From positions 88,108-152,107 of the IMG/VR virus record IMGVR_UViG_3300029044_000314: 64,000 nt of DNA. One strand, given 5' to 3'. Positions within the stretch are counted from its first letter, which is position 1. Each line of letters begins with the position of its first letter. The translations under genes and the position numbers were made by a program. Under the pieces are notes generated by a model. That model did no database searches, was not told the DNA's origin, and saw only the letters and a program-made list of their open reading frames with translations. This document shows positions 9,045 through 60,800 of the stretch, one piece after another. Origin of the DNA: a virus.

Positions 9045-9749
9045 TTATTCTTCCACCAGATTGATTTCAGACAGATAGTCGATGAGTTCCTGCACGACGC
9101 TGGAATATTCCTTGTTGTCGATTTCGGTTGTGCCGTACATGTTCTTGACGGCTTCACGTTCCGTGATGACGGTTTCGAACCGTGCGATGCCTTCCTCATC
9201 CAGTTCGCTGATGCTGTTCCGGGCGAGTTTCGTTCTCGGCTTCACGCGTGTCAACAGGACGATGCCGTTGCGTGCCGCCGCGTATGTGCGTCCCGCGTGG
9301 GTCAAATCGGATACGGATGGCTGGCATGGGATTATCACCACGTCGCCCGCGTTTATCGCCGCCTGTACCACTCCCGCGTCGGACGGTGGGGTGTCGATGA
9401 TGACCCAGCCTGAATATTTTTCGCGGATGAGTTCCGGATTGTTCAATACGGCTTCGTTGGTTTGCACGACGGGGAAGCCGAGCGTGTATGGTTTCGCGTC
9501 CGGATTGTCCTGTCTGCGTCTGCGGTTTTCCTGTTCGACGTACATTTCCCACATGGTCGCGCCGCCCGTGTTGTCGGAGTCCAAGACTGTGACTTGTTCC
9601 CCGCGTTTGTGCAATAGTTCGGCCAATGCCATTGATGTGGTTGTTTTTCCTGAACCGCCTTTGATGATTGCGACGGTGATGATGACCGTATGGTTTTTGA
9701 CTCTCATGTTCTGGTTTCCTTTTTCTGCTTCCGGTGTGGACGGAATCAT
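9045..9749 (-). CDS. parA: ParA-family partition ATPase
   Basis: Deviant Walker A KGGSGKTT; ParA/MinD-like length and layout; true start may be the internal MRVKNHTV. Confidence 0.75.
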   Translation of the reverse strand: MIPSTPEAEKGNQNMRVKNHTVIITVAIIKGGSGKTTTSMALAELLHKRGEQVTVLDSDNTGGATMWEMYVEQENRRRRQDNPDAKPYTLGFPVVQTNEAVLNNPELIREKYSGWVIIDTPPSDAGVVQAAINAGDVVIIPCQPSVSDLTHAGRTYAAARNGIVLLTRVKPRTKLARNSISELDEEGIARFETVITEREAVKNMYGTTEIDNKEYSSVVQELIDYLSEINLVEE

Positions 9750-18647: not shown

Positions 18648-19761
18648 CCCAACCCCAATCCTTCTTTATGATGTCTCGCGTCACGTCCCAACCCCATTCG
18701 CTGACTTTGCGAACGTCACGAACCTGCGGAGTATATTGCGCCCACTCGTCGGAGAAAATGTTGCGTCGTGTTCCACTCATATCCGTATAGTCACCGAACC
18801 TGTCGGTCGGCATCCCATGCTCGAACCATTCGTCCCAGACCGCGATTCCCATTCGTTGCGACACGGTAGGATTGCCCACGACCATTTCCGTCATGCCTTG
18901 CGTGCGTTGTACCACCGCGTTGAACGATTCGTAACCTTCGTTTGCCTTCGGTATCTGCAACCATACGCAGATGAGTCCGCGACGCTTCATCGGAGAATAG
19001 GCGAGCATCTTAGCCCAGTTCTGCATCTTCTTATCCAATTCGCTGTTGGACGTTTGGATTTCGATACCCGCCAACACATTGTTCCGGCACAACGTCACCA
19101 CGTCGGTCGCGCAAGCCTTGCCGACCTTCGACTCGGCAACAGCCTGTGGGTCAACGCTACGGAATTTTCCCCAACCATCACCGGATGAGAATTTCACACG
19201 TGAATCGCGTGCCAACATCAATCCCGCGTGCGCCGCATAAGTGTTATGCCGAACATGGAAACGATTCCCCGCGTAATAGGAAACCGCCATCGTCTCACGC
19301 ATCCACTTTTCCATCCCGTACAATTTCATCGCACGGTTGATAAGACGTGGACTGTTCGACGGTGAAAGCCAAACATGATTCACGGTCTGACCGTACAATC
19401 GTTCCGCCTGACTGAAACCGACGTTGATGATTCCCAAACGGTTCATCGCACCATACAGGTTCGGTTCGTCACGTTCGAAAGCGGGAGCGCCTTTGATGGA
19501 AAGTCCCGCACGTAGTTGGTCAACCGTGCATGTCTTCCAAGTGAACAATGCGCCGAGGATACTCGAAACGAGTTCGCTGTTCGCTTTCACCATTGTCTCC
19601 GCGAACAGTTTGTTCGCAACGAACCACGGGTGGGTCTGCGCGAACAATCCGGGATGCTCCATCTCGAACATGTCGTTGCCTTTATACCAGTCGGCAATGC
19701 TTCCGGTCTTCCAAAGATTCTCGTCGTTCGGGTCGAAAAGAAAACGGTCATCGAATGTCAC
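18565..19761 (-). CDS. hypothetical protein
   Basis: 398-aa ORF with ordinary composition, within the transfer operon. Confidence 0.45.
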   Translation of the reverse strand: MTFDDRFLFDPNDENLWKTGSIADWYKGNDMFEMEHPGLFAQTHPWFVANKLFAETMVKANSELVSSILGALFTWKTCTVDQLRAGLSIKGAPAFERDEPNLYGAMNRLGIINVGFSQAERLYGQTVNHVWLSPSNSPRLINRAMKLYGMEKWMRETMAVSYYAGNRFHVRHNTYAAHAGLMLARDSRVKFSSGDGWGKFRSVDPQAVAESKVGKACATDVVTLCRNNVLAGIEIQTSNSELDKKMQNWAKMLAYSPMKRRGLICVWLQIPKANEGYESFNAVVQRTQGMTEMVVGNPTVSQRMGIAVWDEWFEHGMPTDRFGDYTDMSGTRRNIFSDEWAQYTPQVRDVRKVSEWGWDVTRDIIKKDWGWDVSGWTMPEAYRGGFYGFIGKDCDGLH

Positions 19762-20972
19762 TTACGCCCACGACCTTTCTTTCCTTCACTGTTCTTAGCG
19801 TTCGGATTGAATCTTTCCGGATTGAAACCACGGTCGGGCAAAGCCCAGTTAAGAATGTTCTCCCTAGCAAAAGCAAGACCGGGGTCATCCCATCTGACAT
19901 CACCGTTGGCGATATGGTTGCTTGCCTCGACCGTCTGATATTCGGTTCCGAGAAACGTTCCGTATCTCGTATAGTCGAGTCGTCTGTAACCTTGCAGTCC
20001 GACCGGAACGGTGTCCTTGATTCCGATGAGTTCCTTCGGAAGATGATGCTCAGCCAAGGCCGTCAGCAGATTCAACGCGTCTATCTGCGTCTGCCTTCCA
20101 GCCTTGACGATAACCAGACAAGGGTCTCCCGATTGAATGTATGGAAGCAGTAAACCGTTGGCGATATTCTCCCTATCATCCAAATCGTCCGCGCTGATTC
20201 GGTCAAGGTCGAGCACGACGAAATCCCACAGTCGGCGTGCCGCTTGGATGTACTGACGGTATATCTGCCAGTCCACTCCGACGCCTGCTGGAGGTGCGAA
20301 ACAGATGTCGTATGGAACCCCAAGGTCACGTCCTCGATTGGCTCCGACCTGCACCTGCATGCCCGGTCGCCAGTCGGCTATCGTATGCAATGGCTTGTCC
20401 TGTCTCGGGTCGAAAAAACTACGTTGACTGGACTGTCTGATGTTGCCGTCGATGAGCAGAACACGCAATCCGGCTTGCGACGCACGGTCTGCCAACTGTC
20501 GGCTGGACGTGGTCTTCCCCACTCCTCCGGTGTTGGATGTGATGGGTAGGAGAACCGCAGTCTCCTTCACTTTGTTTTGGAGGATATCGACTACGAGACG
20601 CTTGTCCGCAAGCTGGATTCCCCAATAAGTCCGTGCGAAATCAGCCACGCTCATGCGTAACATCTGTTCGCTCATGCCCATGGCTCCGACCGGTATCTGA
20701 CCGGTGTTGCACCAGTAGACCATGTATCCGGCGTTGGCTATCGGAAGCCAGTTTCCAGCCCTGTCAGTGAAGATGATTCCCTTGAACCCGGAGGGCACCG
20801 GATGTCTTACCAGATAGTCGGCCTGTGCTTGAATATTGTCTGCGGCGGGCACCTGCCAACGCATGTTTCCAGCTCTCGTAAGGGCCTTTTTGATGGTTGT
20901 GAGAAGCCCTCCGGAGCCGATTATCAGGGAAATCGTTCGTTTTTCCAATAAGACCGCCTCCTGATGGGTCAT
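19758..20972 (-). CDS. CpaE/TadZ-like ParA/MinD-family ATPase with N-terminal receiver-like domain
   Basis: 404 aa; deviant Walker A SNTGGVGKTT at about residue 150, preceded by a ~140-aa pseudo-receiver-like region; first gene of the leftward operon. Confidence 0.55.
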   Translation of the reverse strand: MTHQEAVLLEKRTISLIIGSGGLLTTIKKALTRAGNMRWQVPAADNIQAQADYLVRHPVPSGFKGIIFTDRAGNWLPIANAGYMVYWCNTGQIPVGAMGMSEQMLRMSVADFARTYWGIQLADKRLVVDILQNKVKETAVLLPITSNTGGVGKTTSSRQLADRASQAGLRVLLIDGNIRQSSQRSFFDPRQDKPLHTIADWRPGMQVQVGANRGRDLGVPYDICFAPPAGVGVDWQIYRQYIQAARRLWDFVVLDLDRISADDLDDRENIANGLLLPYIQSGDPCLVIVKAGRQTQIDALNLLTALAEHHLPKELIGIKDTVPVGLQGYRRLDYTRYGTFLGTEYQTVEASNHIANGDVRWDDPGLAFARENILNWALPDRGFNPERFNPNAKNSEGKKGRGRK

Positions 20973-29456: not shown

Positions 29457-29855
29457 TTGGAAAGGACGAACAAAAGCATGGTCGAAAAACCGAAAAAACC
29501 GAACACATCCCCGGCGAAGCTTCTGACCGCAGACGAGGCTTTGGCCTTGGGAAGACGACCGGAAGTCGTCAACGTCTTGAAAAACAAGCACGGATGGTGG
29601 GTAATCTTCACCACCCAATTCCAAGACGAAGTGACCCTCCGATATCTGCAAGGGGAACGTCCCTCGGAGATATTCCGCAGTCACAATCTCGGACCGGAAG
29701 TCCTCGGATACAAGCGCATAGAACGTTGCGTATACCGGTGGGTCAACCATCCCAGCAAATCCCGTGTCAAACGTTGGCAAACGGAACACCGCCTGTATGA
29801 GACGTTGAACAAGAATCAGACCAACACCGGCAAGAAGGAGAACAACGACAAGTGA
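29457..29855 (+). CDS. basic hypothetical protein
   Basis: 132-aa ORF coupled to dnaB (stop/start overlap). Confidence 0.4.
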   Translation: MERTNKSMVEKPKKPNTSPAKLLTADEALALGRRPEVVNVLKNKHGWWVIFTTQFQDEVTLRYLQGERPSEIFRSHNLGPEVLGYKRIERCVYRWVNHPSKSRVKRWQTEHRLYETLNKNQTNTGKKENNDK

Positions 29856-31192
29856 GCGTCCCCACACCAATCCACAAGGACATGGCCGAACAAGTGTTGT
29901 TGGGGGCCATGCTTCAAGACGCGGAAACGTTGGACAAGGTCATCAGCCAACTTTCCGAAGAGGACTTCTACCAGCCGACCAACCAGACCATCTTCCATAA
30001 TATAAAGGAACTGGCCGCAGACAATAACCGTGTGGACGCGCAAATGCTGTCCTCGCACATGATGGACAACGGACAGTTGGAACAGGTCGGCGGCATCGAC
30101 TACATCGCCCAGCTTGTCGGCTCCGCGCCCACGTCGAACAACAGTGACTATTTCATCAAGCAGATTCGTGACGCGGCCATCCTCCGCCACATCAACGTGG
30201 TCGGACAGCAGTTGCAACAGATGAGCAACGTGTCCGACGCGTCAGCCGAAGATGTGCTCAGCAAATCGTTGGAGGCCGCGTTCTCGTTGGAGGATTCAAG
30301 CCGTTCCGAAGACGACGAGTTGAAGACCGCATACCGCCTGTCCGACGAAATGCTCCAACAGTTGGATGAAATGTCACAGAATCCGAACGAGTTCGGAACA
30401 CCCACCGGCTTCCGTGACATCGACGCGTTGACGCACGGATTGCAAGCCGGACAAATGGTCATAGTCGCGGGCCGTCCGGGCATGGGCAAGAGTACTCTCG
30501 GCATGGATTTCGCGCGTAACGCCGCACTGCACAAGGGTCTGCCGACTGTGATTTTCAGTCTGGAAATGGGCGGTCACGAACTCATGCAACGCATGTTCGC
30601 AGCCGAAACAGGCATCCGTCTCGCATCGTTCCAACATCCCGAGAATCTGAACTCGAATGATTGGAACAAACTCAACGCGCTCTGCCATCAGGTCGAGAAG
30701 GCACCATTGTGGGTTGATGATTCCGCCATCATCAACATGAGCACCATCCGTGCGAAATGCCGTGCTCTCAGCCGCAAGGTCAACGGGTTGAAGCTTATCG
30801 TCATCGACTACCTGCAACTCATGTCCTCCGGTAAAACCGTCGAGAACCGTCAGCAGGAAGTGTCGAACTTCTCCCGCCAATGCAAAATGCTCGCCAAGGA
30901 ACTGCAATGCCCCGTGGTCGTGCTCTCCCAGTTGAACCGTAATGCGGAACAGCGTGCCGACAAGAAGCCGGAACTGTCCGACCTGAGAGAGTCCGGTTCC
31001 ATCGAACAGGACGCCGACATGGTGTTTCTCGTGCATCGTCCCGAATATTACGACCGTGAGGAACGTCCGGGCGAAGCCGACGTGATTCTCGCCAAGCACC
31101 GTAACGGGCCTACCGAAACGTTCAATCTCGCGTTCATGGGCGAATGCTCCAAATTCGCGGACATGGCCGCAGGTTTCGAAAACGAGTTCTGA
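29852..31192 (+). CDS. dnaB: replicative DNA helicase DnaB
   Basis: 446 aa; N-terminal domain LLGAMLQD, Walker A AGRPGMGKST, LIVIDYLQLM, SQLNRNAEQRADKKPELSDLRESGSIEQDADMV. Confidence 0.9.
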   Translation: MSVPTPIHKDMAEQVLLGAMLQDAETLDKVISQLSEEDFYQPTNQTIFHNIKELAADNNRVDAQMLSSHMMDNGQLEQVGGIDYIAQLVGSAPTSNNSDYFIKQIRDAAILRHINVVGQQLQQMSNVSDASAEDVLSKSLEAAFSLEDSSRSEDDELKTAYRLSDEMLQQLDEMSQNPNEFGTPTGFRDIDALTHGLQAGQMVIVAGRPGMGKSTLGMDFARNAALHKGLPTVIFSLEMGGHELMQRMFAAETGIRLASFQHPENLNSNDWNKLNALCHQVEKAPLWVDDSAIINMSTIRAKCRALSRKVNGLKLIVIDYLQLMSSGKTVENRQQEVSNFSRQCKMLAKELQCPVVVLSQLNRNAEQRADKKPELSDLRESGSIEQDADMVFLVHRPEYYDREERPGEADVILAKHRNGPTETFNLAFMGECSKFADMAAGFENEF

Positions 31193-34650: not shown

Positions 34651-35712
34651 ATGGGAGGGGTTTTGGGAAAACATACGGCGAAACCGAAAGGCTTGGGAAA
34701 TCGAGCCATAGCGGGACTTCTCTGCCTAATCCTATCCGCCCTGTCCGGAACCATCCCATTCATTCTCATGATTTCGAACAGCAGCCAATCCAACCGGTTG
34801 ACCGACTCCCACGCGCAAGCCGTGGAAAACACTGACGTGAAACGAATCGCCCAAGAGTATGCGGACGCGCAAGCCTACAATCAACGCCTATACGAGGAAG
34901 GCCAGCCCATTCTTGGTGAGGCGGAAGACCCTTGGACAGGCGTCAACAAGTCCGAAACGGACAACACGTATCGGAAGCAACTATCCACCCCCAAGGATGG
35001 GGTCATGGCCACCATCAAATATCCACGCTTGGGCATCAACCTGCCCATCCGGCATGGCACGTCGCAAAACGTGTTGGCCGCTGGAGCCGGACACTTATAT
35101 GGTTCCAGTCTCCCCGTCGGCGGCAAGAACACGCATACTGTCATATCCGCGCACACGGGTTTGGCAGACCAGCTCATGTTCGACAAGCTACGAGGCTTCG
35201 GCAGTGAAGCCAAAAAAAGTGACGTCTTCTATCTGATAACCGCCGGACATACGCTCGCCTACAAGGTCACAAGCATTGATGTGGTAGACCCATCCGATTT
35301 CACCAAACTGAAAATCGTCGCCGGAAAAGACCTCGCCACACTCCTAACCTGCACGCCATACGGCATCAACAACAAGCGACTCCTAGTGACCGGCACGCGC
35401 ACCAGCATGCCGCACCCCGCACCCAGACCCGAAAACGCGCCGAAAGACCACACGAACCAATGGCTCATACTGTACGTCGGCGGCTTCTGGCTTGCGGTAA
35501 TCATCATCACCATTCTCATCATCCGTAGAAAAACCACGCAAAGAAGGAACACTAATGGGTATTCTCAAAAAGCATGTGGCACATCCGGTAGCATTATTGG
35601 CCGCAATCGCCACACTGTCATCCGGCCTGATATGCATGACCAATCCGGTAGCCTCTCCGAAAGCGCATGCGGACGAGTTGAAACCCGCATATGCTACTGC
35701 GAAAATCGTTAA
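34651..35712 (+). CDS. class C (pilus-associated) sortase
   Basis: N-terminal TM, catalytic TLLTCTPYG (TLXTC), C-terminal TM WLILYVGGFWLAVIIITILIIRRK; the ORF tail overlaps the adhesin start by 158 nt. Confidence 0.85.
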   Translation: MGGVLGKHTAKPKGLGNRAIAGLLCLILSALSGTIPFILMISNSSQSNRLTDSHAQAVENTDVKRIAQEYADAQAYNQRLYEEGQPILGEAEDPWTGVNKSETDNTYRKQLSTPKDGVMATIKYPRLGINLPIRHGTSQNVLAAGAGHLYGSSLPVGGKNTHTVISAHTGLADQLMFDKLRGFGSEAKKSDVFYLITAGHTLAYKVTSIDVVDPSDFTKLKIVAGKDLATLLTCTPYGINNKRLLVTGTRTSMPHPAPRPENAPKDHTNQWLILYVGGFWLAVIIITILIIRRKTTQRRNTNGYSQKACGTSGSIIGRNRHTVIRPDMHDQSGSLSESACGRVETRICYCENR

Positions 35713-38700: not shown

Positions 38701-40942
38701 CAAAATCAAATCCAACGCGAAAGACACGTCCGACGACATCCACCTAGGCATCGGCGCAGACCAGAAGAACGTGGACTACGGTTACGCCAAGCCAGACCCG
38801 AAAGCCACCGTGGACAAAACCGTCACCGGCACCAGTTGCACTGATACGAAATGCGTCATCAACTGGGATGTCAAAGTACAGAATTCTGGCACTAGTCGTT
38901 TTGACACGTCCAGTGTCGTTTCTGACCGTATGAGCGCTGATGTGCATGATGTTTCCGCTACCGCCGGTACGGTTTCCATCGAGTCTGGTGGCGCGAAACA
39001 GGTTGCTACGAGTGGCGACCATAAGTTCGTGCTCACCAATGAGGGCTTGTTGTATGCGTGGGGGAACAACCAGTATGGTCAGCTTGGTTTCAAGCCTGAC
39101 ACGACGAATTCTGCCACTCCAATGAACGTAAACAAGCCGACCATCATCAACGGTAGTTGGCTGAAAGTCGCCGCCGGAGGCAAACACTCCGCCGCCATCA
39201 GCACGGACGGCCACCTGTACACGACCGGTTGGAATGGTAGCGGCCAATTGGGTACGGGTGATACGGACAATCGTGACCAGTGGACGGAAGTCGCTTCAGA
39301 TAAGACATTCATTGACGTGGCATGCGGCAACCAGTTCACCGTCGCCATCGCAAGCGACGGCACTTTGTGGGGTGTTGGAAACGCTGTAAGCTATCAGAAC
39401 TATGCGACTTGGACGCAAATCGGTTCTGATGTCAAGTTCACTCAACTCAGTGCAAGCATGGACGGTTTCATCGCATTGAACACATCCGGCAGATACCTGT
39501 ACTACGGTACAGATGTTCGGGGGCAGGGCGCTGGCGGTTATACGCAAGTCGCCGCCGCGTTCGGTCGAATGTATGCGTTGAAAAATGATGGGACGGTGAT
39601 TCAGGTTGCCACAACCTATGATGACTCTTATTCGCCTAACTTGTCCGGTTTGAAGGACATTGTGAAAATCAGCGGCGGATACAATACCTTGTACGCCATC
39701 GACAAGAACCAGCACTTGTGGTCTATGGGTTGGAATGGTGACGGCCAGTTGGCTAACGGTCAGACCGGTAGTGGCACGTATTGGACGGACGGTTGGACGA
39801 GTGACAATAAGGATATTGTCAACACTCCGTTCGATACGAACATTATTGCATCCGACGTGGCGGGTGGCGACCGTGACGTGCTCATTCTTAGCAAGCAGGT
39901 CATGATTGCGGGCTCCGACCCGTATGGTGACGGTAAGACGGGTGGCGCGCGTTCCACCGGTTTGAAAGGCATGGCCGTATCGTCCGACCCAACCGCCGTA
40001 CCTGTCGAACCATCGAGCGAAACCACTGAGAACGAGTTGACTACCCGCACATACAATCTGCCATACAGCATTAAGCCGGGCGGCTATGTCATCTACCATT
40101 TCACCGGCACCGTTGACCGTGATATTACGGATACGACAAAGTGGGAACTGTCCGATATTGACAAGTGGGTGAAAGAGCATACGAAGACCATTCTCAACCA
40201 AGCATGGTTCGACTCCGAACACACACCATACTCGGGCACGCCACACGCAAGCGGCAAAACCAAGCCGAACACTCCGGACGCTACGAAACTGGATGCCAAC
40301 ACGAATGATGTGACCGGCAATCCGACCTGCCGCACCGACACGGACTATACGGAGGAAGGACGTCAACACTGGTTCAGCACGTCCGATGAGGACTCCTGCG
40401 ACCAAGTCGGCACCATCATCACCCCAACCACAACCGCGAAGAACCTCGGTTCCATCAGCGGCCTATATTGGGACGACACGAACAAGAACGGCATCCAAGA
40501 TGAAGGTGAGAACACGCATTTCGCCGGTCAGACGGTCATTCTGACTGACGAGAACGGCAAACAGTTGGCAACCACCAAGACCGACGAGGATGGCAAGTAC
40601 ATTTTCGAACGTCTGGACGCGAACGGCAACAAATACCGTATCCAATTCACCAAAGTGAACCACCGGGACTTCACCACGCCGGATGCGGGAGACAAGACCC
40701 CTGCGACGGATGGAAGCTCCACTGATTCGGACGCTTACACGGACGAAGACAACAAGCTGACCATCACCCTCACCCAAGATGCTCCAACCAAGGAGCATGT
40801 GGATGCGGGTGTCCTGCCTGAAACATGGTTGGCGACCATGCCGCACACAGGCATGGGATTGCTGTTGCCGCTCCTCATGCTCGTCAGCATCAGCGGACTC
40901 GTCACGGCAATCATCCTCCTACGAAAGAAGGAAGAACAGTGA
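35555..40942 (+). CDS. giant sortase-substrate surface adhesin (RCC1-like beta-propeller + CnaB/SdrD-B repeats)
   Basis: 1795 aa; strong RBS aagaaggaac; signal peptide; RCC1 repeats (YAWGNNQYGQLG, TTGWNGSGQLGTGD, SMGWNGDGQLANG); two CnaB/SdrD-B-type domains (GTVWWDKDEN..., GLYWDDTNKNGIQDEGE...); C-terminal LPETW...MPHTG + TM + RKKEEQ sorting-signal-like end. Confidence 0.8.
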   Translation: MGILKKHVAHPVALLAAIATLSSGLICMTNPVASPKAHADELKPAYATAKIVKKADGTGHGTSSQTFVNSKNGFATGDDSPTDGVVASGDTVEYSLTLNFNAAGKRTINVKFDLDDAPYLQTADGGGFCQPGQLVTAKKNSDGSCSYTVPAGGVETMTQTFYLKAKDTGGLVKPGQIPKIVVAREGGTSTTYRTDELTVVSAPAADLVIDNGGNPVKGQYSYEHRTYWSQNTDATGDFTIRTDALTYPGYSSTKGASTSIDWTTKVDISDFPQGTVWTVGGQRITRNSDKEQYLTVSSGKNGTAATISYRIPAGTDALKNMKEGDVKYYDVHLVPDETVFSVKDDNGNALLNMGKGGEPGWNIGRDKSTYNKDTGARVGYPYANNDWSRAIIQRLKPTPAGKIPLFGKGLQRPNTASKTMFDKENLTFDAAEGKADIYHYYSDGSGDTVSRGTQVKTILEMYAANVTADKLKNTTPTMQDEWDNTRMRWDGSLEVTQNGAPVSDYKVQWADSKDNWHDGEPSDTDAPNVKKIRVTFNPDTLTLGKGAPNVQVTFNTLAIADVSKGNVEALDTLTAWLTEDDKASVTNWVWIAKPVDPTTSIDISLKAYDGEGNQVYANNSSNHPSGSAVDLTPGMRVDYTVTEQLRTILLSNTSMTPTITVPKPKGLYNPTCDDSFWQMKVDGNNLVFTPRSGKVTPEVDRMGSATLPDLHFSGIVSNLATGTVTASANMSVDVDENGALQAQTIKSNTPSVPFPVSNAETNSGIMRVKTTKAEIGDPLTWEFNVYGKGGGHTGTMDSMLLLPANGDEKYVQDKLVEYERGYSNYHGSYELTQPVTVNMDNSTSTTVYYSTTTGKKSDNPADYEWKTWDELSAIEKKNITAIRLTSTVVASDDKLSYSAVNGTITLIPSDNVKDDKYTLWLGRNYYSDASDKPAGNQPWPDVAKIVSGSISGTVWWDKDENTLIGDGEERIEGVEVTLGKQDSSGGWQTVKTVKTDKDGHYEFDLLHSGTYRTSVKRNTGTSTGDGVQTQVKTYYNKLENVTNTRSWSNKIKSNAKDTSDDIHLGIGADQKNVDYGYAKPDPKATVDKTVTGTSCTDTKCVINWDVKVQNSGTSRFDTSSVVSDRMSADVHDVSATAGTVSIESGGAKQVATSGDHKFVLTNEGLLYAWGNNQYGQLGFKPDTTNSATPMNVNKPTIINGSWLKVAAGGKHSAAISTDGHLYTTGWNGSGQLGTGDTDNRDQWTEVASDKTFIDVACGNQFTVAIASDGTLWGVGNAVSYQNYATWTQIGSDVKFTQLSASMDGFIALNTSGRYLYYGTDVRGQGAGGYTQVAAAFGRMYALKNDGTVIQVATTYDDSYSPNLSGLKDIVKISGGYNTLYAIDKNQHLWSMGWNGDGQLANGQTGSGTYWTDGWTSDNKDIVNTPFDTNIIASDVAGGDRDVLILSKQVMIAGSDPYGDGKTGGARSTGLKGMAVSSDPTAVPVEPSSETTENELTTRTYNLPYSIKPGGYVIYHFTGTVDRDITDTTKWELSDIDKWVKEHTKTILNQAWFDSEHTPYSGTPHASGKTKPNTPDATKLDANTNDVTGNPTCRTDTDYTEEGRQHWFSTSDEDSCDQVGTIITPTTTAKNLGSISGLYWDDTNKNGIQDEGENTHFAGQTVILTDENGKQLATTKTDEDGKYIFERLDANGNKYRIQFTKVNHRDFTTPDAGDKTPATDGSSTDSDAYTDEDNKLTITLTQDAPTKEHVDAGVLPETWLATMPHTGMGLLLPLLMLVSISGLVTAIILLRKKEEQ

Positions 40943-40953
40943 AAGGAACAAGA

Positions 40954-41886
40954 ATGGGCAAACACGCCACCCAATCACACGGGAGCCGTCACATGGTTCG
41001 GCGGCTCCTCGCCACCCTCGCCATCATGAGCGCGGTCTGCGGCGGCTTCCTCACCGGTAGTGCAATAGCCGCCGAACCAGCCAAATGCAATACTGGCGTG
41101 GACAAGGTTTGCTACGCGGGCTATAACGCGGCGGGATTGAAACAGATTGCCGACGATTTAAGCGAGAAAGGCAAAGGAAGCACATACTATGCCGCAATGG
41201 AAAAGAACCTGACCGACGGGGTCAAAGGCACGCTCACCCTATCGGACGGCTCGAACCTCCCATTCCGACTCATCGGCATCCTCCACGACGACAAAGCCGA
41301 CGGAAGTGGACGAAAAGCAGGATTGACGTTCATGGCTTGGAACGCGTTACCGAAAGCGTATGCCATGAACAATAGTCACACCAATAATGGCGGCTGGCGT
41401 GACAGTCTTCTCCGCAATCAGATGAACAATGGTGAAATCTGGAACCAATTCCCAACCGACTTCCAAAACAACGTCACAACCGTGCTGAAACAAACCAACA
41501 ACATGGCCTACGGAAGCACAGTCGGTTCAAGCGCGTCAGCCACGGCAGACAAAGTATGGCTCGTCTCCTACCGTGAACTCGTACCAACCTTATACGATGG
41601 TTGGAAGACCTCTGGTGGTTTCCAAGCGTTGAATCAGGAGGGAAGCCAATACGAGTATTTCCACGGTAAGGTGACAAATAACTGGTCGGGTAATAGCATT
41701 CTCTCCGGCATCTACAAGACCGTTTCCGGTTCCACTCCTCTTGGTGCTTACGTCAACTATTGGTGGGAGCGTTCGCCCGACCCGAACAGCGGCAGCTTTT
41801 TCCTCCAAGTGTACTCGGACGGCGGCCCCAGCTACTACTACGGTGCCAGCTATCGCTACTCCGTTGTCCCCGCTTTCTCCTTCTAA
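40954..41886 (+). CDS. secreted DGR target (variable) protein
   Basis: 310 aa from the ATG after RBS gaaaggaaca; Sec signal peptide MVRRLLATLAIMSAVCGGFLTGSAIA; the last ~50 codons are the VR (…YVNYWWERSPDPNSGSFFLQVYSDGGPSYYYGASYRYSVVP). Confidence 0.75.
   Translation: MGKHATQSHGSRHMVRRLLATLAIMSAVCGGFLTGSAIAAEPAKCNTGVDKVCYAGYNAAGLKQIADDLSEKGKGSTYYAAMEKNLTDGVKGTLTLSDGSNLPFRLIGILHDDKADGSGRKAGLTFMAWNALPKAYAMNNSHTNNGGWRDSLLRNQMNNGEIWNQFPTDFQNNVTTVLKQTNNMAYGSTVGSSASATADKVWLVSYRELVPTLYDGWKTSGGFQALNQEGSQYEYFHGKVTNNWSGNSILSGIYKTVSGSTPLGAYVNYWWERSPDPNSGSFFLQVYSDGGPSYYYGASYRYSVVPAFSF
41719..41872 (+). repeat. DGR variable repeat (VR)
   Basis: 154 bp matching the TR at 42517-42670; about 24 mismatches, all at positions where the TR has A. 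Confidence 0.85.
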
Positions 41887-41898
41887 TCCCCAATCCTT

Positions 41899-41925
41899 GG
41901 GTGGTGGGGTTCATCCCCACCACCC
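41899..41925 (+). promoter_or_regulatory. GC-rich hairpin downstream of the VR (candidate DGR target-recognition stem-loop)
   Basis: ggtggtgggg-ttcat-ccccaccacc, 10-bp stem, about 27 nt after the end of VR homology; no counterpart after the TR. Confidence 0.5.
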
Positions 41926-41958
41926 CTCCAAACTCAAATCTCACACAAAAGGAGTCCT

Positions 41959-42474
41959 ATGACGGTTCCCGCAAGCAAACGTACAAAAGCCAAAAGCGAA
42001 TATGCGAATCAGGCCAGAATCGTGCTCTTGGCTACCAGAAATCTGTTCCGCAAATGGCCTAAAAGCCGTAACTGCATTGAAACCGTGCATGTCATGCATA
42101 TCGCCTACGAAATGTACTCCTCCGCCTACAGTGCCGACATCATTTATGCAAGCACTGTAGAAGAGCATGAGATGAAACTGCAACTGTTGTGCAAGGCCCA
42201 AGGCATGCTGAACTCACTCTCCGGTCTTGTGGACGATTGGATGGAGTTTCCTCCACGGGAAAAAGACTTGGAAGCCTACAGGAAATATCCGGAAGGCGAC
42301 CCCAGATACAATCCCGTCGTCAAGGAGAAGAAATTCGTGAACTATGCGGGAACCCTCTACAAGGCGATGGGCGTGTTCACCGGAGCCGTCAAGTATGAGC
42401 GAGACCAGTTGAAGAAAGCTAAAAACGCCGAGTCGAAAACGAACACTATAATGGATACTCGGGCGCAAGCCTAA
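41959..42474 (+). CDS. DGR accessory protein (Avd-like by position)
   Basis: 171-aa helical basic ORF located between the target gene and the TR, which is the canonical avd position. Confidence 0.4.
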   Translation: MTVPASKRTKAKSEYANQARIVLLATRNLFRKWPKSRNCIETVHVMHIAYEMYSSAYSADIIYASTVEEHEMKLQLLCKAQGMLNSLSGLVDDWMEFPPREKDLEAYRKYPEGDPRYNPVVKEKKFVNYAGTLYKAMGVFTGAVKYERDQLKKAKNAESKTNTIMDTRAQA

Positions 42475-42516
42475 AATATAATTGAACAAAATCGGCCATA
42501 TCCAAACTATGGTGAC

Positions 42517-42670
42517 ACCGTTTCCGGTTCCACTCCTCTTGGTGCTAACAACAACAATTGGTGGGAGCGTTCGCCCGACCCGAACAACAACAACAATTTC
42601 CTCCAAGTGAACTCGAACGGCGACCCCAGCTACAACAACAATGCCAACAATCGCTACTCCGTTGTCCCCG
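42517..42670 (+). repeat. DGR template repeat (TR)
   Basis: Non-coding copy of the VR in which 15 codon positions are AAC/AAT and one is GAC; lies about 200 bp upstream of the RT gene. Confidence 0.85.
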
Positions 42671-42864
42671 ATTCCTCTTACCAAAAACTAACATCAGATA
42701 GGCCAGTAGCCCAATGGGTGAAAGCCTCCCGAAGGGGAAGGGGATATGGTCGAATGCGCGGCCCCTCGAAAAATGGGTTGCGTGTGAAATAGGTTGAGGG
42801 AGATATTAAGACTGTCGGAAACGACGGATACTCGCCCCTTAAGCTGGGCGTCCAACATCATTGC

Positions 42865-44094
42865 ATGTCTTGGGTTGTTGCCGACGACCTGCCCTCAACC
42901 ATTCTTTTCTCTTTCCCTAGTGAAGGAAGCATTAAAATCGTGAATGCGAGTCAAAGACGTAGAAGACGCCAACGCAGACTGCAACAACGCTCGGATGATA
43001 AGTACAGGAAGCTCCACCGTTACATCGACTTCCAACAAACATTCGGATTCGACGCGCTCTACCAAGCCGCAAGAAAATGCAAACGCGGCGTCACATGGAA
43101 AAACACAGTGTTGAACTTCGACAATAGGCGTGCCGTCAACTGTTGGAAACTCGCCCAAGAATTAGAGGACGGCACATACAAGAAGAGAGCGCCAATCCGA
43201 TTCGACATTTCCGAACGAGGCAAACTCCGCCACATCAGCGCGGTATCCTTCCGAGACCGGGTGGTGCAACGCGCCTTATGCGACAACAGTCTCGTCCCCA
43301 TCGTGGAAAGCCAACTGATATACGATAATGCGGCAAGCCTACCGAAACGTGGAACATCGTTCGCCCGAAAACGGTTCGAACTACACTATAAGCGGGCTTT
43401 GGGCAAATGGGAGCATCCGTATGCTGTCATCTTCGACTGTGCCAACTATTTCGGAAGTATCAGCTCCCAACGAGCGTTCGATATGATTTCCACCCTGTAC
43501 CGGAGCATCGCCCGCACCGGACGGGAGAAGCAGGATGTGGAACGGATTCTAACCGTATTGAGAATCTTCGTATTGGACGAACCTCACTTGGGTTTAGGCA
43601 ATCAGACAAGCCAAACCATGGCTATCTGGTATTTGAACAAGGTTGACCACTGGTGCATGTCGCAAGGATTCTACGGACGGTATATGGATGATGCCTACTG
43701 TTTCTGCAAGAATCGTGAACAGGCCGAACGTGTGCTGGCCGGTTACGAGCGGCATGTCAATCAATTGGGATTGCGGTTGAACAAGCGCAAGACCCGCATA
43801 GTGGACTGTCGCACCGGTCAACTCACATTCCTGAAACGCGTATACAGCGTACAGGATGACGGCAGTATTCTTATCCGCATGCACCATAAGGCGTTGCGTG
43901 CAAGCCGACGGCATGCGCGTAACCTTATCCGCTCATATGATGGCGTGCATGTGGGATTGCGGACAGTTCAGGATTCTTGGACGAGCCATGAGAGCACACT
44001 GTCGGGTCTAACTCACCGTCGTGGACTGTGCGCTCGGGAGAAAGCGTGGTATCGGAGGCATTGTGAAATGCGGAAGCTGGCTTTTCACCCGTGA
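42865..44094 (+). CDS. DGR reverse transcriptase
   Basis: 409 aa; RT motifs AVIFDCANYFGSI, DGR-diagnostic LGLGNQTSQ ([ILV]GxxxSQ), catalytic YGRYMDDAYCF (YMDD). Confidence 0.85.
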   Translation: MSWVVADDLPSTILFSFPSEGSIKIVNASQRRRRRQRRLQQRSDDKYRKLHRYIDFQQTFGFDALYQAARKCKRGVTWKNTVLNFDNRRAVNCWKLAQELEDGTYKKRAPIRFDISERGKLRHISAVSFRDRVVQRALCDNSLVPIVESQLIYDNAASLPKRGTSFARKRFELHYKRALGKWEHPYAVIFDCANYFGSISSQRAFDMISTLYRSIARTGREKQDVERILTVLRIFVLDEPHLGLGNQTSQTMAIWYLNKVDHWCMSQGFYGRYMDDAYCFCKNREQAERVLAGYERHVNQLGLRLNKRKTRIVDCRTGQLTFLKRVYSVQDDGSILIRMHHKALRASRRHARNLIRSYDGVHVGLRTVQDSWTSHESTLSGLTHRRGLCAREKAWYRRHCEMRKLAFHP

Positions 44095-44363
44095 TTTCCG
44101 GACTTTCCAGATTGGTGGAGGGGTGTAATCTGCTGGAAGCGGTGGCGCAGAATCTTCCGCTTCCTCAATCGTTTGGATGAGATTTCGTGAGGCTTGGATT
44201 GTATCGTATTTCACTCGGCATGCTTGTCGGCTAGTTTTTCTTCCCAGCTTGGTGTTACACTGGGTTTACTTGCATTTCCTTCCTCGGGACTTCGCCCATG
44301 TGGGGCTTTAGAGGTTATCAGCGCATTGGTCAGAGTATGCCGTTTGAGTGAAAGGAAACTGTC

Positions 44364-44975
44364 ATGGCAGGTTTTGATGATATTACGGTCACTCGCAGTG
44401 ATGTCCGTTTGAAGGTTAAGGCTCCGTATAATCCGTTGTTCGCACGTCGCTCCCGCGCGTTGGGTGGAACGTTTGATGACAAGTTGAAGACTTGGACGTT
44501 CGATATGCGTGTGGAAAGGCTGGTGTTCGAAGCTTTAGACAAATATTTCTGGTGGCATAAGGGCGTGGACGCTGAAAAGCGTGTCACAGTCACCATCGAC
44601 CCCTACGACTACTTGTACGCGTACTCCAAGCAGGATAGCGACATTATCTGGTTCGCTGGTCGAATCCTAGTCGAAAAATATCAGCCCGACCGTCCACCGC
44701 GCATGATGCCGAATGTGGCTCTCGTGGATGGCATGTGGCCTAAAACCGGCTTGTATACGGGGTTGAATCTCAGTCCCGACAAACTCCGATTATTGGTATG
44801 GGATGTTCCCACCAGTTTTCTGGAACGACTGTCGTCCGGCAAGTATGAGTTGTCTGAGCCGGATGGTGACACGTTGACTGCGGTTGACGTTCGTATTCAG
44901 GCTGTGGAGGAACGGTTAGGCCGGTTGAGGGAACTCCGAACCCGACTCGCCTCTAATAGTGAGGATGGTGAATGA
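44364..44975 (+). CDS. hypothetical protein
   Basis: 203-aa ORF. Confidence 0.45.
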   Translation: MAGFDDITVTRSDVRLKVKAPYNPLFARRSRALGGTFDDKLKTWTFDMRVERLVFEALDKYFWWHKGVDAEKRVTVTIDPYDYLYAYSKQDSDIIWFAGRILVEKYQPDRPPRMMPNVALVDGMWPKTGLYTGLNLSPDKLRLLVWDVPTSFLERLSSGKYELSEPDGDTLTAVDVRIQAVEERLGRLRELRTRLASNSEDGE

Positions 44976-45979
44976 TGCTCTCCGTGCCGATTAATGGTCA
45001 AGTCCAGTCGCGTCTCATTCCGCCCACGTTCGTGGAAGACAACATCAGCGACATGTTCAAGGCTGTGGACGCCGGACACAATATCGTCGTGACGGCAGTG
45101 GACGAGTACGGTAATCGAACCAGTATTACCACGCCGGATAATGTGAATCATGACATGCTGGGGCGTCCTCTCGAATTCGCGTCCCATCCCGTACTGATGC
45201 GGAATGTGCGCCGTTGGATGGTTTGGCTGTTGCAAGCGCAATACTGCAAGGATTACAAGTGGGATACGAACAGGCTTGGAGGTTGGATGGAAGTGTTGGG
45301 TTTACCAGCCGACCTTGATATTCCCGTAACGGAGGAACATTTACGCGTGTTGAAGCCTGTGTTTAACAAGGATGATGCCGACCCGTATCGGCTTGTCGCA
45401 CGATACGACAAGCAACATTATGCTTCATGCACCCTCAGCACTCTCATACGGTTAGCCGAACAAACCACGCCGAACTATGCCCTGAACAATCCCGCCCGCT
45501 GGTGTCAAACCGACCGATACCGCAAACTCAGCATCCAACCCAATCCGAAAGAAAACTGGGACGGAATGGACAGGGTACGCGACTGTTGGAGCGGATGCGA
45601 ATGGGCATACCCCGCATTGGAACGCTACTATAATCCGATTCGACTATTACGCGACGAATACCGGCGGGGAGGACTACCTGAAACCTTCCACTATCCAATA
45701 CACACGACAAGAGGAGAATACCGGTTGGCGAAAGGACAAATCAGCCCCCACGCAACAATCCTCCTCAACGGCAAGCCGGTAGGACTCATGTTCAGCGACG
45801 ATTGCGAGGAACCATTCACCGACCGGATACCACCCGAATGGTGCGCCACACCCTTACCGGAAAACTATAAGACCACGCCACTCAACCGAAACATTCCCGT
45901 AAACGGCGAATTCAAACCATCATTCCAGCAAGCCATGCTGGGATTCGTGGAATGGTATGAGAAAACGCACAAGGGATAG
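44972..45979 (+). CDS. hypothetical protein
   Basis: 335-aa ORF, ATGA-coupled to the upstream gene. Confidence 0.45.
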   Translation: MMLSVPINGQVQSRLIPPTFVEDNISDMFKAVDAGHNIVVTAVDEYGNRTSITTPDNVNHDMLGRPLEFASHPVLMRNVRRWMVWLLQAQYCKDYKWDTNRLGGWMEVLGLPADLDIPVTEEHLRVLKPVFNKDDADPYRLVARYDKQHYASCTLSTLIRLAEQTTPNYALNNPARWCQTDRYRKLSIQPNPKENWDGMDRVRDCWSGCEWAYPALERYYNPIRLLRDEYRRGGLPETFHYPIHTTRGEYRLAKGQISPHATILLNGKPVGLMFSDDCEEPFTDRIPPEWCATPLPENYKTTPLNRNIPVNGEFKPSFQQAMLGFVEWYEKTHKG

Positions 45980-45988
45980 CAAAAAGAA

Positions 45989-46014
45989 AAGCCCCTCGAC
46001 TGAGGGGCTTTTTC
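45989..46014 (+). terminator. intrinsic (bidirectional) terminator
   Basis: aagcccctc-gact-gaggggctt followed by tttt; an A-run precedes the hairpin. Confidence 0.7.
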
Positions 46015-46085
46015 AGTAAATGTCACATGGTGTCGGGATTGAATTCTTCCAGCTTGTCCATGCAAACCGCCCAGAACAACAAAAC

Positions 46086-47243
46086 CTAGTTCTCCGAGCG
46101 TTCGCTGATATTCTCCCGCATCTGCAAATAAGCCCCATGCTCACGCAAGTAATCCCGCAAATACGGCATTTTGAAAGCGACTTCACCGTAACCGACCGGC
46201 TCAATCAAATCGTTCTCAATCAGCTTGGTTCTATACACGTTGGCGAACTGTGGCGAACGGTTCAACCGACGGGCGATTTCACCTGTATTCGACACCGTAT
46301 CATCCACCGACATGGCAAGTAGATAGTTCACCGCATGGGATGGCAAGCCATGCAATGCTGGGGCGTGAACCATATCCCCTAGTTTGGCTTGGGCTTTTTC
46401 GATACCCTTGACCGCGTCCTCCTCGGTCACTTGATTCACATGACCGTTGGTTTCGGACATCCGCCAAGCCCAATAGCCCACCAGCTGAATCATGAACGGA
46501 TAACCGTGAGTGGCGTTGGTCAACCGTATCAGCGTTTCCATTCCGGCTTTCTTCTCGCCGCTGAAGGATTCCTCGAACGCCTTCAATACCTTTTCCGTGG
46601 GGACAGACCCCAAATGGTATCGTTCCGCCCGTTGCAGGAAAGTGATGGCATTGTCGGACAGCACGTCGTTCACTGCGGACGGCAGTCCGGCGAAAACGAA
46701 CGCGATGTTCCGTCCTTCCCGGATGAGATGCTGCACTGCGGTGGACAGTGCTCTGATTTCGTCCATGGAACCGGACTGCACCTCATCCAATGTGATGAGG
46801 ATTCCTTGTTTGGTCTCGTTCATTTTGTCCAATCGTTTTCCGACCGCTTGGCGGAGTGTCAGGGAACGTTCCTCATTATGTTCGAGTTCGATTCTCCCTA
46901 AGCTCAGTTCAAGATTCCCGACGTCCCCTTTCAATCCTACTTTGGGCATGTCGTATGCGGATATGCGGGTGGTGTCCTTGCCGGTGAGCGCGTCCACGAG
47001 TCTTCGGGTGAAGCCTTTGTCGGCGCTTTCGTTGTAGATTTGCCAACCTTGTTTTTGGGCGTGCTCTCCCAGTGTGTTCAGCATGACTGTTTTGCCGACT
47101 CCTCTGGCTCCTGTGAGGAACATCAGCCGTCCGGGGCTTCCCACACCGTCTTTCAGCGCATAGTCGAAGTCTTCGATGATTTCTTCTCGTCCGACGAGTA
47201 TCGGTGGGATACGTCCGGCGGTTGGTTTGAATGGGTTGGTCAT
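46086..47243 (-). CDS. AAA-type ATPase with C-terminal winged-helix (archaeal-ATPase/DUF234-like orphan ATPase)
   Basis: Start at the internal ATG 47241-47243 with RBS aaggaaac; Walker A GARGVGKT; C-terminal wHTH-like region; AT-rich promoter region at 47250-47300. Confidence 0.55.
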   Translation of the reverse strand: MTNPFKPTAGRIPPILVGREEIIEDFDYALKDGVGSPGRLMFLTGARGVGKTVMLNTLGEHAQKQGWQIYNESADKGFTRRLVDALTGKDTTRISAYDMPKVGLKGDVGNLELSLGRIELEHNEERSLTLRQAVGKRLDKMNETKQGILITLDEVQSGSMDEIRALSTAVQHLIREGRNIAFVFAGLPSAVNDVLSDNAITFLQRAERYHLGSVPTEKVLKAFEESFSGEKKAGMETLIRLTNATHGYPFMIQLVGYWAWRMSETNGHVNQVTEEDAVKGIEKAQAKLGDMVHAPALHGLPSHAVNYLLAMSVDDTVSNTGEIARRLNRSPQFANVYRTKLIENDLIEPVGYGEVAFKMPYLRDYLREHGAYLQMRENISERSEN

Positions 47244-47480
47244 GTCTGTTTCCTTGATTTTATAATAATTATAATAAGTATAATACTTTAAAAAAGCATG
47301 TACCAAGAGGTTAAGTTCGATAATGGGCGAGCTTTGTCGAGAGTAGAGGTTGACGACCTAAACGGAAGTGGTTTAAAATAGATTCTTGTTTGAGATAAGG
47401 TCACTTTTCTAAAAGGCACTGAGGGACGGTTCCCGTTTCGGTTTCCGTTCCTCTTTTTTGTGTTGTTTTCATACTTGAGG

Positions 47481-47503
47481 TATACTGGAATTGTTCACAC
47501 AGG
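47481..47503 (+). promoter_or_regulatory. conserved 23-bp promoter-like motif
   Basis: tatactggaattgttcacacagg, 28 nt upstream of the ATG at 47531. Confidence 0.55.
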
Positions 47504-47530
47504 AAAAGTCGAAAAACCAAGGAGCAAAAA

Positions 47531-48355
47531 ATGAGCAACATCGACAGCATCATCGAACGCATCAACAACCTCATGGCAATAGCCGAAAACGAAGCATCCA
47601 GCGACAATGAGGCGCAAATGGCGTTCGAGCGGGCACAGAAACTCATTAACGAATATCGTATCGAAGACTGGAAACGCGACCGCACCCGCATGAACAAGCC
47701 AATCATCGAACGTGGCGTGAACGTAAGCAAAACCACCATCTACCATCAGCAAGGCTACCTTGCGACCATCATCGCCCAAGCTAACGAATGCCGCGCCTAC
47801 CTTCACGAAAGCCGGTGTGGCGGAAGGATTGAGGAACGTGCCGTCATGTTCGTAGGCGAGGAGGACGATGTGAACGCCGCAGTCCTTCTCTTCCAAAGCA
47901 TCGACCTATACTGCTCAGTCCACGCCCGCACTAGCTACGCGGACATGATTGACCAGCACGCCAAAGCGTACTATGAGGACAACAAGGAATACGTCGAAAC
48001 GCATTACGGACGTGAATCCTATCCGACGCTGACGGAATGCAAACAGTACATGCGTCGTGATTATCCACGCGCCAAGTTCTACTATGGTTATCGCGGTGGA
48101 TTCAACGAACGTTTGAGCGAACGTTTCGAGGAGCTTCGCAAGCAGAGTCTCGCCATTCCTTCCGGTCGTGAGCTGGTGTCATGCAAGAGTCAGCGTCTGA
48201 ACGAGTATTTTGACAAGCTTGAGCTGGTGTCGGGTCGTGCTACCACTGCTCGTGGTAGCAAGGATGGTTTTGCCCGTGGTGTGAGTGACGCGAACAATGT
48301 GGGTTTGGGTTTGTCTGAAATGGGTGTTTCGTCCCACGCTTTGCTGAATGCCTGA
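47531..48355 (+). CDS. DUF2786-like protein
   Basis: N-terminus MSNIDSIIERINNLMAIAENEASSDNEAQMAFERAQKLINEY fits the DUF2786 N-terminal signature common on plasmids and phages. Confidence 0.45.
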   Translation: MSNIDSIIERINNLMAIAENEASSDNEAQMAFERAQKLINEYRIEDWKRDRTRMNKPIIERGVNVSKTTIYHQQGYLATIIAQANECRAYLHESRCGGRIEERAVMFVGEEDDVNAAVLLFQSIDLYCSVHARTSYADMIDQHAKAYYEDNKEYVETHYGRESYPTLTECKQYMRRDYPRAKFYYGYRGGFNERLSERFEELRKQSLAIPSGRELVSCKSQRLNEYFDKLELVSGRATTARGSKDGFARGVSDANNVGLGLSEMGVSSHALLNA

Positions 48356-60215: not shown

Positions 60216-60800
60216 ATGAGCTGGGACAGATACCAAAGTCGAGACCCCAGAAGAATCGACCCAATGAAAACACCACTCTACGATTACGTGGTCTTGGATA
60301 CCGAAACCACCGGCTTCAAACCCGAAAACGGGGCTAAACTCATCGAAATCGGAGCCGTGAAAATCCACGGGGGAAAACTCGTAGACCGATACGAGCAACT
60401 TATTGACCCGCACCAGCATATCCCCGAACACATCACCTCCCTCACCGGAATCAACGACAGTATGGTCATCGGACAACCCGACGTAAGCCAAGCCATCATC
60501 CGATTCGACAAGTGGCTTGGCCCGCGAACCATCATTATGGCGCATAACGCGTCATTCGATTTAAGTTTCTTGGACGCGGCCATGAAAACCGTGAACGGTG
60601 GAATGTTCTTCTTTCCACACCGGTTTGTGGACACGTTGGAAATGAGTCGGAAAATCCATCCCGAAAAGCCAAGCCATAAGGTTGCCGTGCTTATCCGCGA
60701 CTATGGTATCGGTGACGTGGAAGAGCATCGCGCCTTGTCCGACGCGACTCAGGAAAACATGCTGTATGAAGCCATGCGCAGAGAGGAGTTTGGGTGCTAA
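60216..60800 (+). CDS. DnaQ-like (DEDDh) 3'-5' exonuclease
   Basis: Exo I VVLDTETTG, Exo II MAHNASFDLSFL, Exo III HRALSDA. Confidence 0.75.
   Translation: MSWDRYQSRDPRRIDPMKTPLYDYVVLDTETTGFKPENGAKLIEIGAVKIHGGKLVDRYEQLIDPHQHIPEHITSLTGINDSMVIGQPDVSQAIIRFDKWLGPRTIIMAHNASFDLSFLDAAMKTVNGGMFFFPHRFVDTLEMSRKIHPEKPSHKVAVLIRDYGIGDVEEHRALSDATQENMLYEAMRREEFGC

Follow-up and report, generated by a model that had tools for sequence, protein, structure and literature searches.

What does a pair of near-identical repeats beside a reverse transcriptase (RT) gene do on a plasmid-like element of the human gut, and is it still at work? We addressed this question in a stretch of 64,000 nucleotides (nt) from the IMG/VR virus record IMGVR_UViG_3300029044_000314 (positions 88,108 to 152,107; hereafter the window), in which one repeat forms the 3' end of a gene for a secreted protein and the other is non-coding and lies upstream of the RT gene. 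A preliminary description of this DNA had proposed a complete diversity-generating retroelement (DGR), that is, a target gene ending in a variable region (VR), an accessory gene, a template region (TR) and the RT. That proposal was borne out, and the tests named as able to refute it all favoured a DGR. We are nearly certain that the locus is a canonical DGR of the order target(VR)-avd-TR-RT, carried by a Bifidobacterium plasmid of about 185–224 kb that is distantly related to pMP7017. Each defining DGR feature that we tested was found, save that the accessory protein could be assigned to the Avd family by its fold and not by its sequence. The features are listed in Table 1.

Template adenines specify the differences between the repeats

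In order to define the repeats, we aligned positions 41700-41890 with 42498-42688. The alignment revealed a single direct repeat, free of gaps, whose copies are offset by 798 nt, and the two 154-bp copies were present where they had been placed before. Within this core all 19 mismatches fell on TR adenines (hypergeometric P = 4.7e-13 for 19/19 on 42 adenines among 154 TR bases), so the confinement to template adenines held under careful alignment. The preliminary description had counted about 24 mismatches, every one of them at a TR adenine. The count is reached only when the run is extended to the stop codon (168 nt), which adds five mismatches at 41873, 41876, 41880, 41882 and 41884; three of these five lie on non-adenine TR bases, and the adenine-only rule is therefore valid for the 154-nt core only. 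The VR base opposite a changed adenine was G (10) or T (9) and never C in the window copy, contrary to the earlier listing of C among the replacements. All changes in the core affected codon positions 1 or 2. Read in the frame of the VR, the TR gives ...GANNNNWWERSPDPNNNNNFLQVNSNGDPSYNNNANNRYSVVPD... and contains 16 AAY codons rather than 15, of which 14 are altered in the window VR, together with one GAC codon that had been recognized correctly. By genetic code arithmetic, the 16 AAY codons alone yield a theoretical repertoire of 15^16, or about 6.6e18. No further VR-like copy was found on either strand of the 64-kb window.

The target start at 40954 (310 aa) was given by gene callers on ten independent contigs. 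The protein carries its own signal peptide, is a DUF6273 member whose fold is that of a C-type lectin, and has a match in TvpA; the VR thus sits at the C-terminus of a ligand-binding fold, as is characteristic of DGR targets. Named homologs came from B. pseudocatenulatum, B. moukalabense and Bifidobacteriaceae, and a tblastn search of plasmids gave only a weak match, to a Collinsella DUF6273 protein.

Variation of the repeats among related loci

To follow the repeats across the population we used two sets of loci of the same element, here given L numbers: 11 loci aligned over 9.2 kb, and 14 more from a metagenome scan. Both repeats were present in 24 metagenome loci. One locus, L011 (the locus of P0001), ends at a contig edge, and most of its target gene is missing. 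Among the 11 loci, 39 of the 42 VR sites opposite TR adenines were variable (nucleotide diversity, pi, 0.47), compared with 3 of the 112 sites opposite other bases (pi 0.011). The TR itself had one single-nucleotide polymorphism, and outside the VR the cassette (about 40200-46000) was nearly monomorphic. The 24 loci carried 21 distinct VRs, and 455 of their 471 TR-VR mismatches lay at TR adenines (A>G 250, A>T 171, A>C 34). The earlier expectation that relatives should be polymorphic in the VR only at TR-adenine positions, with an unchanging TR, was therefore met almost to the letter in these loci. They also contained nine TR alleles, differing at up to 10 non-adenine positions, and the non-adenine sites of each VR agreed with the TR allele of the same locus. 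This tracking of its own TR allele by each VR is the signature of information flow from TR to VR, and the comparison between loci provides population-level evidence of ongoing retrohoming, in which the VR changes and the TR does not.

Could the cassette nevertheless be a fossil, once active but no longer diversifying in the window copy, with the VR differences being old alleles spread by plasmid transfer? DGR loss is known in this plasmid lineage, where B. pseudocatenulatum isolates carry a deletion of window positions 42117-46134 and an orphan target gene, and some loci have the same VR (the window and L003; L002 and L004). In the window, however, every component is intact, and at least 21 contigs encode an RT of the very same sequence. 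Furthermore, across 5,648 aligned columns of flank the window is identical to L006 and L010, yet the three differ at 20–23 positions in the 154-nt VR. Such a pattern is not expected from old alleles on diverged backbones, and the matching of non-adenine VR sites to the TR allele of each locus argues in the same direction. We consider a fossil cassette very improbable. The chance that no retrohoming takes place at all, the repeats being an ordinary duplication or gene-conversion pair whose VR was varied by recombination or diversifying selection, is negligible: a duplication alone could produce a 154-nt direct repeat, but selection or recombination can neither restrict 455 of 471 differences to template adenines nor keep the non-coding copy invariant, the neighbours are a DGR-type RT, an Avd-fold protein and DGR-type RNA helices, and the confinement of mismatches to TR adenines effectively refutes this reading.

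Two loci differed in repeat length. In L009 (2858-3008) the VR is one codon short of its TR within the AAC-AAC-AAC-AAC-AAT run, which looks like in-frame slippage. In L030 (2654-2806) the TR seems one base short in the AACAACAACAAT run, for which an assembly error or a TR frameshift allele is possible.

Reverse transcriptase, accessory protein and RNA helices

The 409-aa open reading frame (ORF) had been described as carrying DGR-type motifs, and LGNQTSQ and RYMDD are indeed present, at the places in the alignment where the Bordetella DGR RT has IGSLTSQ and RYMDD. That enzyme was also the best match in the PDB (8ub7_A, E 8e-13), where no group II intron or retron RT structure was found at E 1e-3 or better. 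The RT further matched phrog_1423, an RT family, at E 5e-56, and its nearest plasmid-borne relatives adjoin annotated avd genes. By structure and profile matches, the protein sides with DGR RTs and not with those of group II introns or retrons, as the preliminary description had anticipated. We see next to no chance that it belongs to another retroelement (a group II intron, a retron or a defence-associated RT, DRT) lying next to the repeats by accident: the NCBIfam group II intron RT model gave the best library E-value (1.3e-24), accompanied by weak DRT and retron matches, but these scores are far below the family cutoffs (e.g. 87 vs 300 bits); Pfam detected no maturase/X or endonuclease domain; Rfam, at permissive thresholds, matched no family at 40500-44500, group II intron and retron non-coding RNAs included; the best solved relative is a DGR RT; and relatives with an RT identity as low as 50–67% likewise have the RT in the company of a TR, a VR and an avd-like gene.

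At its N-terminus (region 42865-42990) the RT has an Arg-rich stretch, QRRRRRQRR, which is kept in relatives and missing from the 328-aa RT of Bordetella phage BPP-1; the protein here measures 384–409 aa. An AAGGA lies 12 nt upstream of GTG 42940. Because of the basic N-terminus of the relatives and this upstream AAGGA, GTG 42940 appears the likelier start, and the annotated ATG may be too far upstream.

The accessory gene had been described as a small helical ORF in the avd position. The protein is helical and has the Avd fold, but it fails all sequence-level Avd tests: neither the protein, nor 21 members of its family, nor their profile had any match in Pfam, NCBIfam or PDB sequences, and hence none to the Avd sequence family (PF05635, whose members 2gsc and 2rld are relatives of Avd, and the four-helix-bundle models). 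Its predicted structure, which is confident (pLDDT, a per-residue confidence measure, 89.8), shows a bundle of four helices, the third and fourth of which are separated by a beta-hairpin, and its fold and its position between target and TR are those of an Avd. Since the fold was found while every sequence-level test failed, we designate the protein, on the strength of the model, a structurally bona fide but sequence-divergent Avd. Compared with the BPP-1 Avd, it has a beta-hairpin insert and a C-terminal extension and no detectable sequence similarity. The family is small, with 6 clusters in a word-indexed search and 30 representatives among 1.84 billion proteins, and has the invariant signature MTVPxSKR...RKWPKSR. 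Its gene always lies upstream of related RTs, down to 50% RT identity, and tblastn of the protein against phages and plasmids gave no match.

We then considered the RNA around the TR. RNAduplex on long flanks was too permissive, and contiguous helices constrained to be adjacent were tested instead. This revealed a duplex between the TR tail and the spacer (helix B), adjacent to a duplex between sequence upstream of the TR and the spacer (helix A), as in known DGRs. The joint score of the two helices was reached by 0–7 of 200 spacer shuffles. Compensatory pairs for helices A and B were found in five lineages: helix A has compensatory changes in L015, L016 and L068, helix B co-varies in L015, L016, L068 and L069, and the same geometry with different sequences also occurs in L012, L015, L016 and L068. 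A minimum free energy fold of the whole region was no better than shuffles (z -0.46). In the cryo-EM structure of the Bordetella ribonucleoprotein, a TR:Sp template:primer duplex is followed, after 2 nt, by an avd:Sp 'cPRT Stop' duplex, in the arrangement Sp47-56 / Sp57-58 / Sp59-70 (bioRxiv 10.1101/2023.10.23.563531); the succession of helix B, a 2-nt gap and helix A equals this geometry. Helix B starts 2 nt 3' of the last position shared by VR and TR; with identity ending at 42670 and the helix beginning at 42672, this fits a cDNA start at the 5' edge of the duplex.

The VR side has the corresponding asymmetry between VR and TR ends (IMH/IMH*, initiation of mutagenic homing) and a hairpin downstream of the VR, both of which are typical of DGRs. 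The last 14 nt of the VR were invariant in all VRs examined, including those of relatives with 67–80% RT identity. The GC-rich hairpin was more stable as folded DNA than shuffled sequence (z = -3.89; 0/200 shuffles equally stable), recurs in L011, L013 and L015, where the stem carries compensatory changes and the loop is unaltered, and was not called as an intrinsic terminator. By analogy with Bordetella, both segments would serve in homing.

These elements suggest the following course of events, in which cis-priming, the exact cDNA ends and the Avd-RT complex are modelled on Bordetella. An RNA covering the end of the avd-like gene, the TR and a spacer of about 200–270 nt would fold so that the 3' tail of the TR pairs with a purine-rich spacer strand (helix B) and the sequence just upstream of the TR pairs with the adjacent spacer strand (helix A). 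The RT, held by the pentamer-type Avd-like protein, would prime in cis from the spacer near A42739 and copy the TR from about 42670 back toward helix A, misincorporating opposite adenines. The cDNA would then replace the VR in the target gene, to which the invariant IMH-like end of the VR and the GC hairpin beyond it would presumably direct it. The expected outcome is near-random recoding of the 16 AAY codons and a few others in the ligand-binding face of the secreted DUF6273 protein.

Several points weigh against a canonical, active DGR. Sixteen of the 471 mismatches are at non-adenine sites, and A>C is under-represented (7% of changes), as RT bias or selection might produce. The evidence of activity comes from comparison between loci and is indirect for the window copy, and the consensus sequences from metagenomes could be mosaics of VR variants that occur side by side. 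Moreover, the helices are supported only down to about 50% RT identity; shuffles were not beaten in distant loci (RT relatives below about 45%).

Table 1. Features of the cassette and of the genes preceding it, in window coordinates
Feature	Position	Strand	Remarks
DGR target gene, 310-aa secreted DUF6273 (C-type-lectin-like) protein	40954-41886	+	VR at C-terminus
Variable region (VR)	41719-41872	+	C-terminal part of target gene; 19 mismatches to TR
IMH-like 3' end of VR	41873-41886	+	5 fixed differences from TR, 3 of them non-adenine, up to the stop codon
GC-rich hairpin, candidate target-recognition hairpin/cruciform	41899-41925	+	11-bp stem, TTCAT loop, no T-run; 12 nt past the stop codon
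Avd-like accessory gene, 171 aa	41959-42474	+	Predicted four-helix bundle with beta-hairpin insert
Helix A, 5' strand (cPRT-Stop-like duplex)	42492-42503	+	14 nt upstream of TR; predicted to pair with 42742-42753
Template region (TR)	42517-42670	+	Non-coding; 42 adenines; 16 AAY codons read in VR frame
Helix B, TR-tail strand (template:primer-like duplex)	42672-42679	+	TTCCTCTT predicted to pair with AAGGGGAA at 42732-42739
Spacer segment with 3' strands of helix B (42732-42739) and helix A (42742-42753), 2 nt apart	42732-42753	+	Predicted cis-priming site near A42739
DGR reverse transcriptase, 409-aa ORF	42865-44094	+	RVT_1; alternative start GTG 42940 gives 384 aa
Sortase gene, upstream context	34651-35712	+	Pfam Sortase E 1.7e-20; same gene order in B. 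pseudocatenulatum isolates; probably same transcription unit
Surface protein gene, 1795 aa	35555-40942	+	Pfam RCC1, RCC1_2, SdrD_B, SpaA; ends 12 nt before target

The host plasmid, its surface genes and related systems

The window had been taken for part of a plasmid-like element, and its gene content agrees: RepA_C, two ParA-like genes, DnaB and AAA ATPases are present, and no tRNA was found. Metagenome contigs of the element, from human gut samples, reach 207–224 kb. The best plasmid match was pMP7017 of B. breve (NZ_KM406416.1), at only about 67% nucleotide identity over dnaB, and these gene and sequence matches support the view that the host element is a relative of the Bifidobacterium megaplasmid. 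It shares genus and size class with the conjugative pMP7017 family (185–224 kb here vs 184–198 kb), and RepA_C and ParA are present here; neither an RT nor a DGR is mentioned in the pMP7017 paper. When the cassette was compared by megablast with the plasmids of PLSDB and the phages of INPHARED, nothing matched; the target, the Avd-like gene and this RT were each absent from the deposited plasmids searched, and the cassette was absent from the deposited phages as well. An exact search with the adenine-masked TR gave 0 matches in GTDB representative genomes, which indicates that the element is absent from species-representative assemblies. The RT belongs to a 90% cluster of 930 member sequences; more distant relatives, 34–51% identical, were found in Ruthenibacterium and in Coriobacteriia, Gordonibacter and Adlercreutzia among them. 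DGRs of Lachnospiraceae, Ruthenibacterium and Coriobacteriia (L040-L082) share a conserved nucleotide sequence in the TR core (…AACAACAATTGGTGGGAGCGTTCGCC…), and some of these loci have two VR-like copies per TR (e.g. L045 1407-1611, 1827-1935, 2642-2764).

On contigs of 184.8 kb, the deletion isolates of B. pseudocatenulatum, L020 and L021 (GCA_020526265.1, GCA_001686045.1), retain the target gene together with those for the sortase and the giant surface protein; the RT, the TR, two ORFs (44364-45979) and the greater part of the avd-like gene are gone. Their assemblies are identical over 12.9 kb, and compared with the window TR their orphan VR is changed at 21 adenines and at 7 other bases. 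The two lost ORFs overlap and lie directly 3' of the RT, at 44364-44975 (203 aa) and 44972-45979 (335 aa). Neither has a Pfam match, the first has a weak match to phrog_18108, and the pair accompanies the RT in all near-identical loci and is absent beside RT relatives of 50–80% identity. Further downstream, a minus-strand AAA_16 ATPase gene (46086-47306) and a DUF2786/DUF7168 gene (47400-48100) form a second, moderately polymorphic zone (pi 0.03–0.11), and a TnpB/IS605-OrfB gene lies near the zone downstream of the cassette in L012 and L020. Elsewhere in the window, housekeeping or defence-type genes at 4247-5272, 7366-8355, 9045-9749, 19758-20972, 29852-31192 and 60216-60800 encode a GmrSD_C-like nuclease, RepA_C, the two ParA-like ATPases, DnaB and an RNase_T-family exonuclease. 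No Pfam family matched several ORFs of very large size, including minus-strand ORFs of 1343 aa (10385-14416) and 886 aa (15452-18112).

Upstream of the cassette, the genes for the sortase, the 1795-aa protein and the target are contiguous (with the 12-nt gap replaced by an overlap in L015) and syntenic in all relatives. The C-terminus of the 1795-aa protein, ...MPHTGMGLLLPLLMLV...RKKEEQ, resembles a sorting signal. Its gene is highly polymorphic, especially at 38864-40063, with pi of 0.13–0.22 per 150-nt bin compared with about 0 in the cassette, and the called protein lengths ranged from 1728 to 2066 aa across samples. No TR-like template was found for this gene, which points to another process, e.g. 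repeat-domain recombination or allele exchange. The window annotation contained no phage structural genes near the target.

Among known systems, the DGR of Bordetella phage BPP-1 (mtd-avd-TR-brt) has the same order of target with VR at the C-terminus, avd, TR and RT. It shares with our locus the adenine-specific transfer from TR to VR, the RT motifs [LIV]GxxxSQ and YMDD, the Avd fold, a C-type-lectin-fold target, a fixed VR 3' end that differs from the TR, a GC hairpin after the VR, and two duplexes 2 nt apart. In contrast, BPP-1 carries its DGR on a phage and diversifies the tip of a tail fibre, whereas the locus described here is on a Gram-positive plasmid and its target is a free secreted DUF6273 protein; the hairpin here is also distinguished by its 11-bp stem, 5-nt loop and start 12 nt past the stop codon. 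The DGR of Legionella pneumophila (LdtA) lies on a mobile genomic island and diversifies the bacterium's own secreted or surface C-type-lectin-fold protein, and is likewise a DGR of a cellular mobile element; it differs in host phylum, in its lipoprotein target exported by Tat, and in its canonical Avd. DUF6273 has already been described as a DGR target in gut phages (PMC10743442). These DGRs (tentaclins, Mtd-like targets; PMC10743442, bioRxiv 10.1101/2024.10.15.618418) share with ours the target family, a VR at the C-terminal end of the domain and the human gut as habitat, but their targets are receptor-binding or decoration proteins of Clostridia phages, while ours is encoded by a plasmid directly after a sortase and a giant sortase-anchored protein.

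The architecture, the RNA elements and the target type were thus known before, no new mechanism is involved, and the locus leaves the understanding of how DGRs work unchanged. What is new is the setting, namely a widespread Bifidobacterium megaplasmid lineage and a secreted target directly after a sortase and a sortase-anchored giant protein, together with a divergent Avd clade, which would escape the profile-based DGR finders in use today, and population data that document activity with unusual clarity. The locus also offers a compact Gram-positive (Actinomycetota) DGR with mapped RNA elements for engineering or for mechanistic comparison with Bordetella, and the RT-less deletion variants in cultured B. 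pseudocatenulatum provide a ready-made negative control.

Bifidobacteria are key commensals of the human gut and are used as probiotics, and little is known of how megaplasmids affect their surface biology. The locus shows that one plasmid lineage, which is widespread, has a functional hypermutation cassette directed at a secreted protein of the lectin-like type. The element was found in many human-gut cohorts with a VR that differs in nearly all samples, and it offers a natural marker by which DGR activity in the gut can be followed with strain resolution. Rather than a stand-alone binder, the target may be the variable recognition subunit of a surface module formed with the sortase and the sortase-anchored 1795-aa RCC1/SdrD_B protein, through which the megaplasmid would alter the adhesion of its host, for example to recipient cells in conjugation, as a DGR counterpart of the R64 shufflon, or to host glycans. 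We regard this reading as unlikely at present. If it is true, a plasmid would be extending the range of cells or sites open to its own transfer or colonisation by means of targeted hypermutation.

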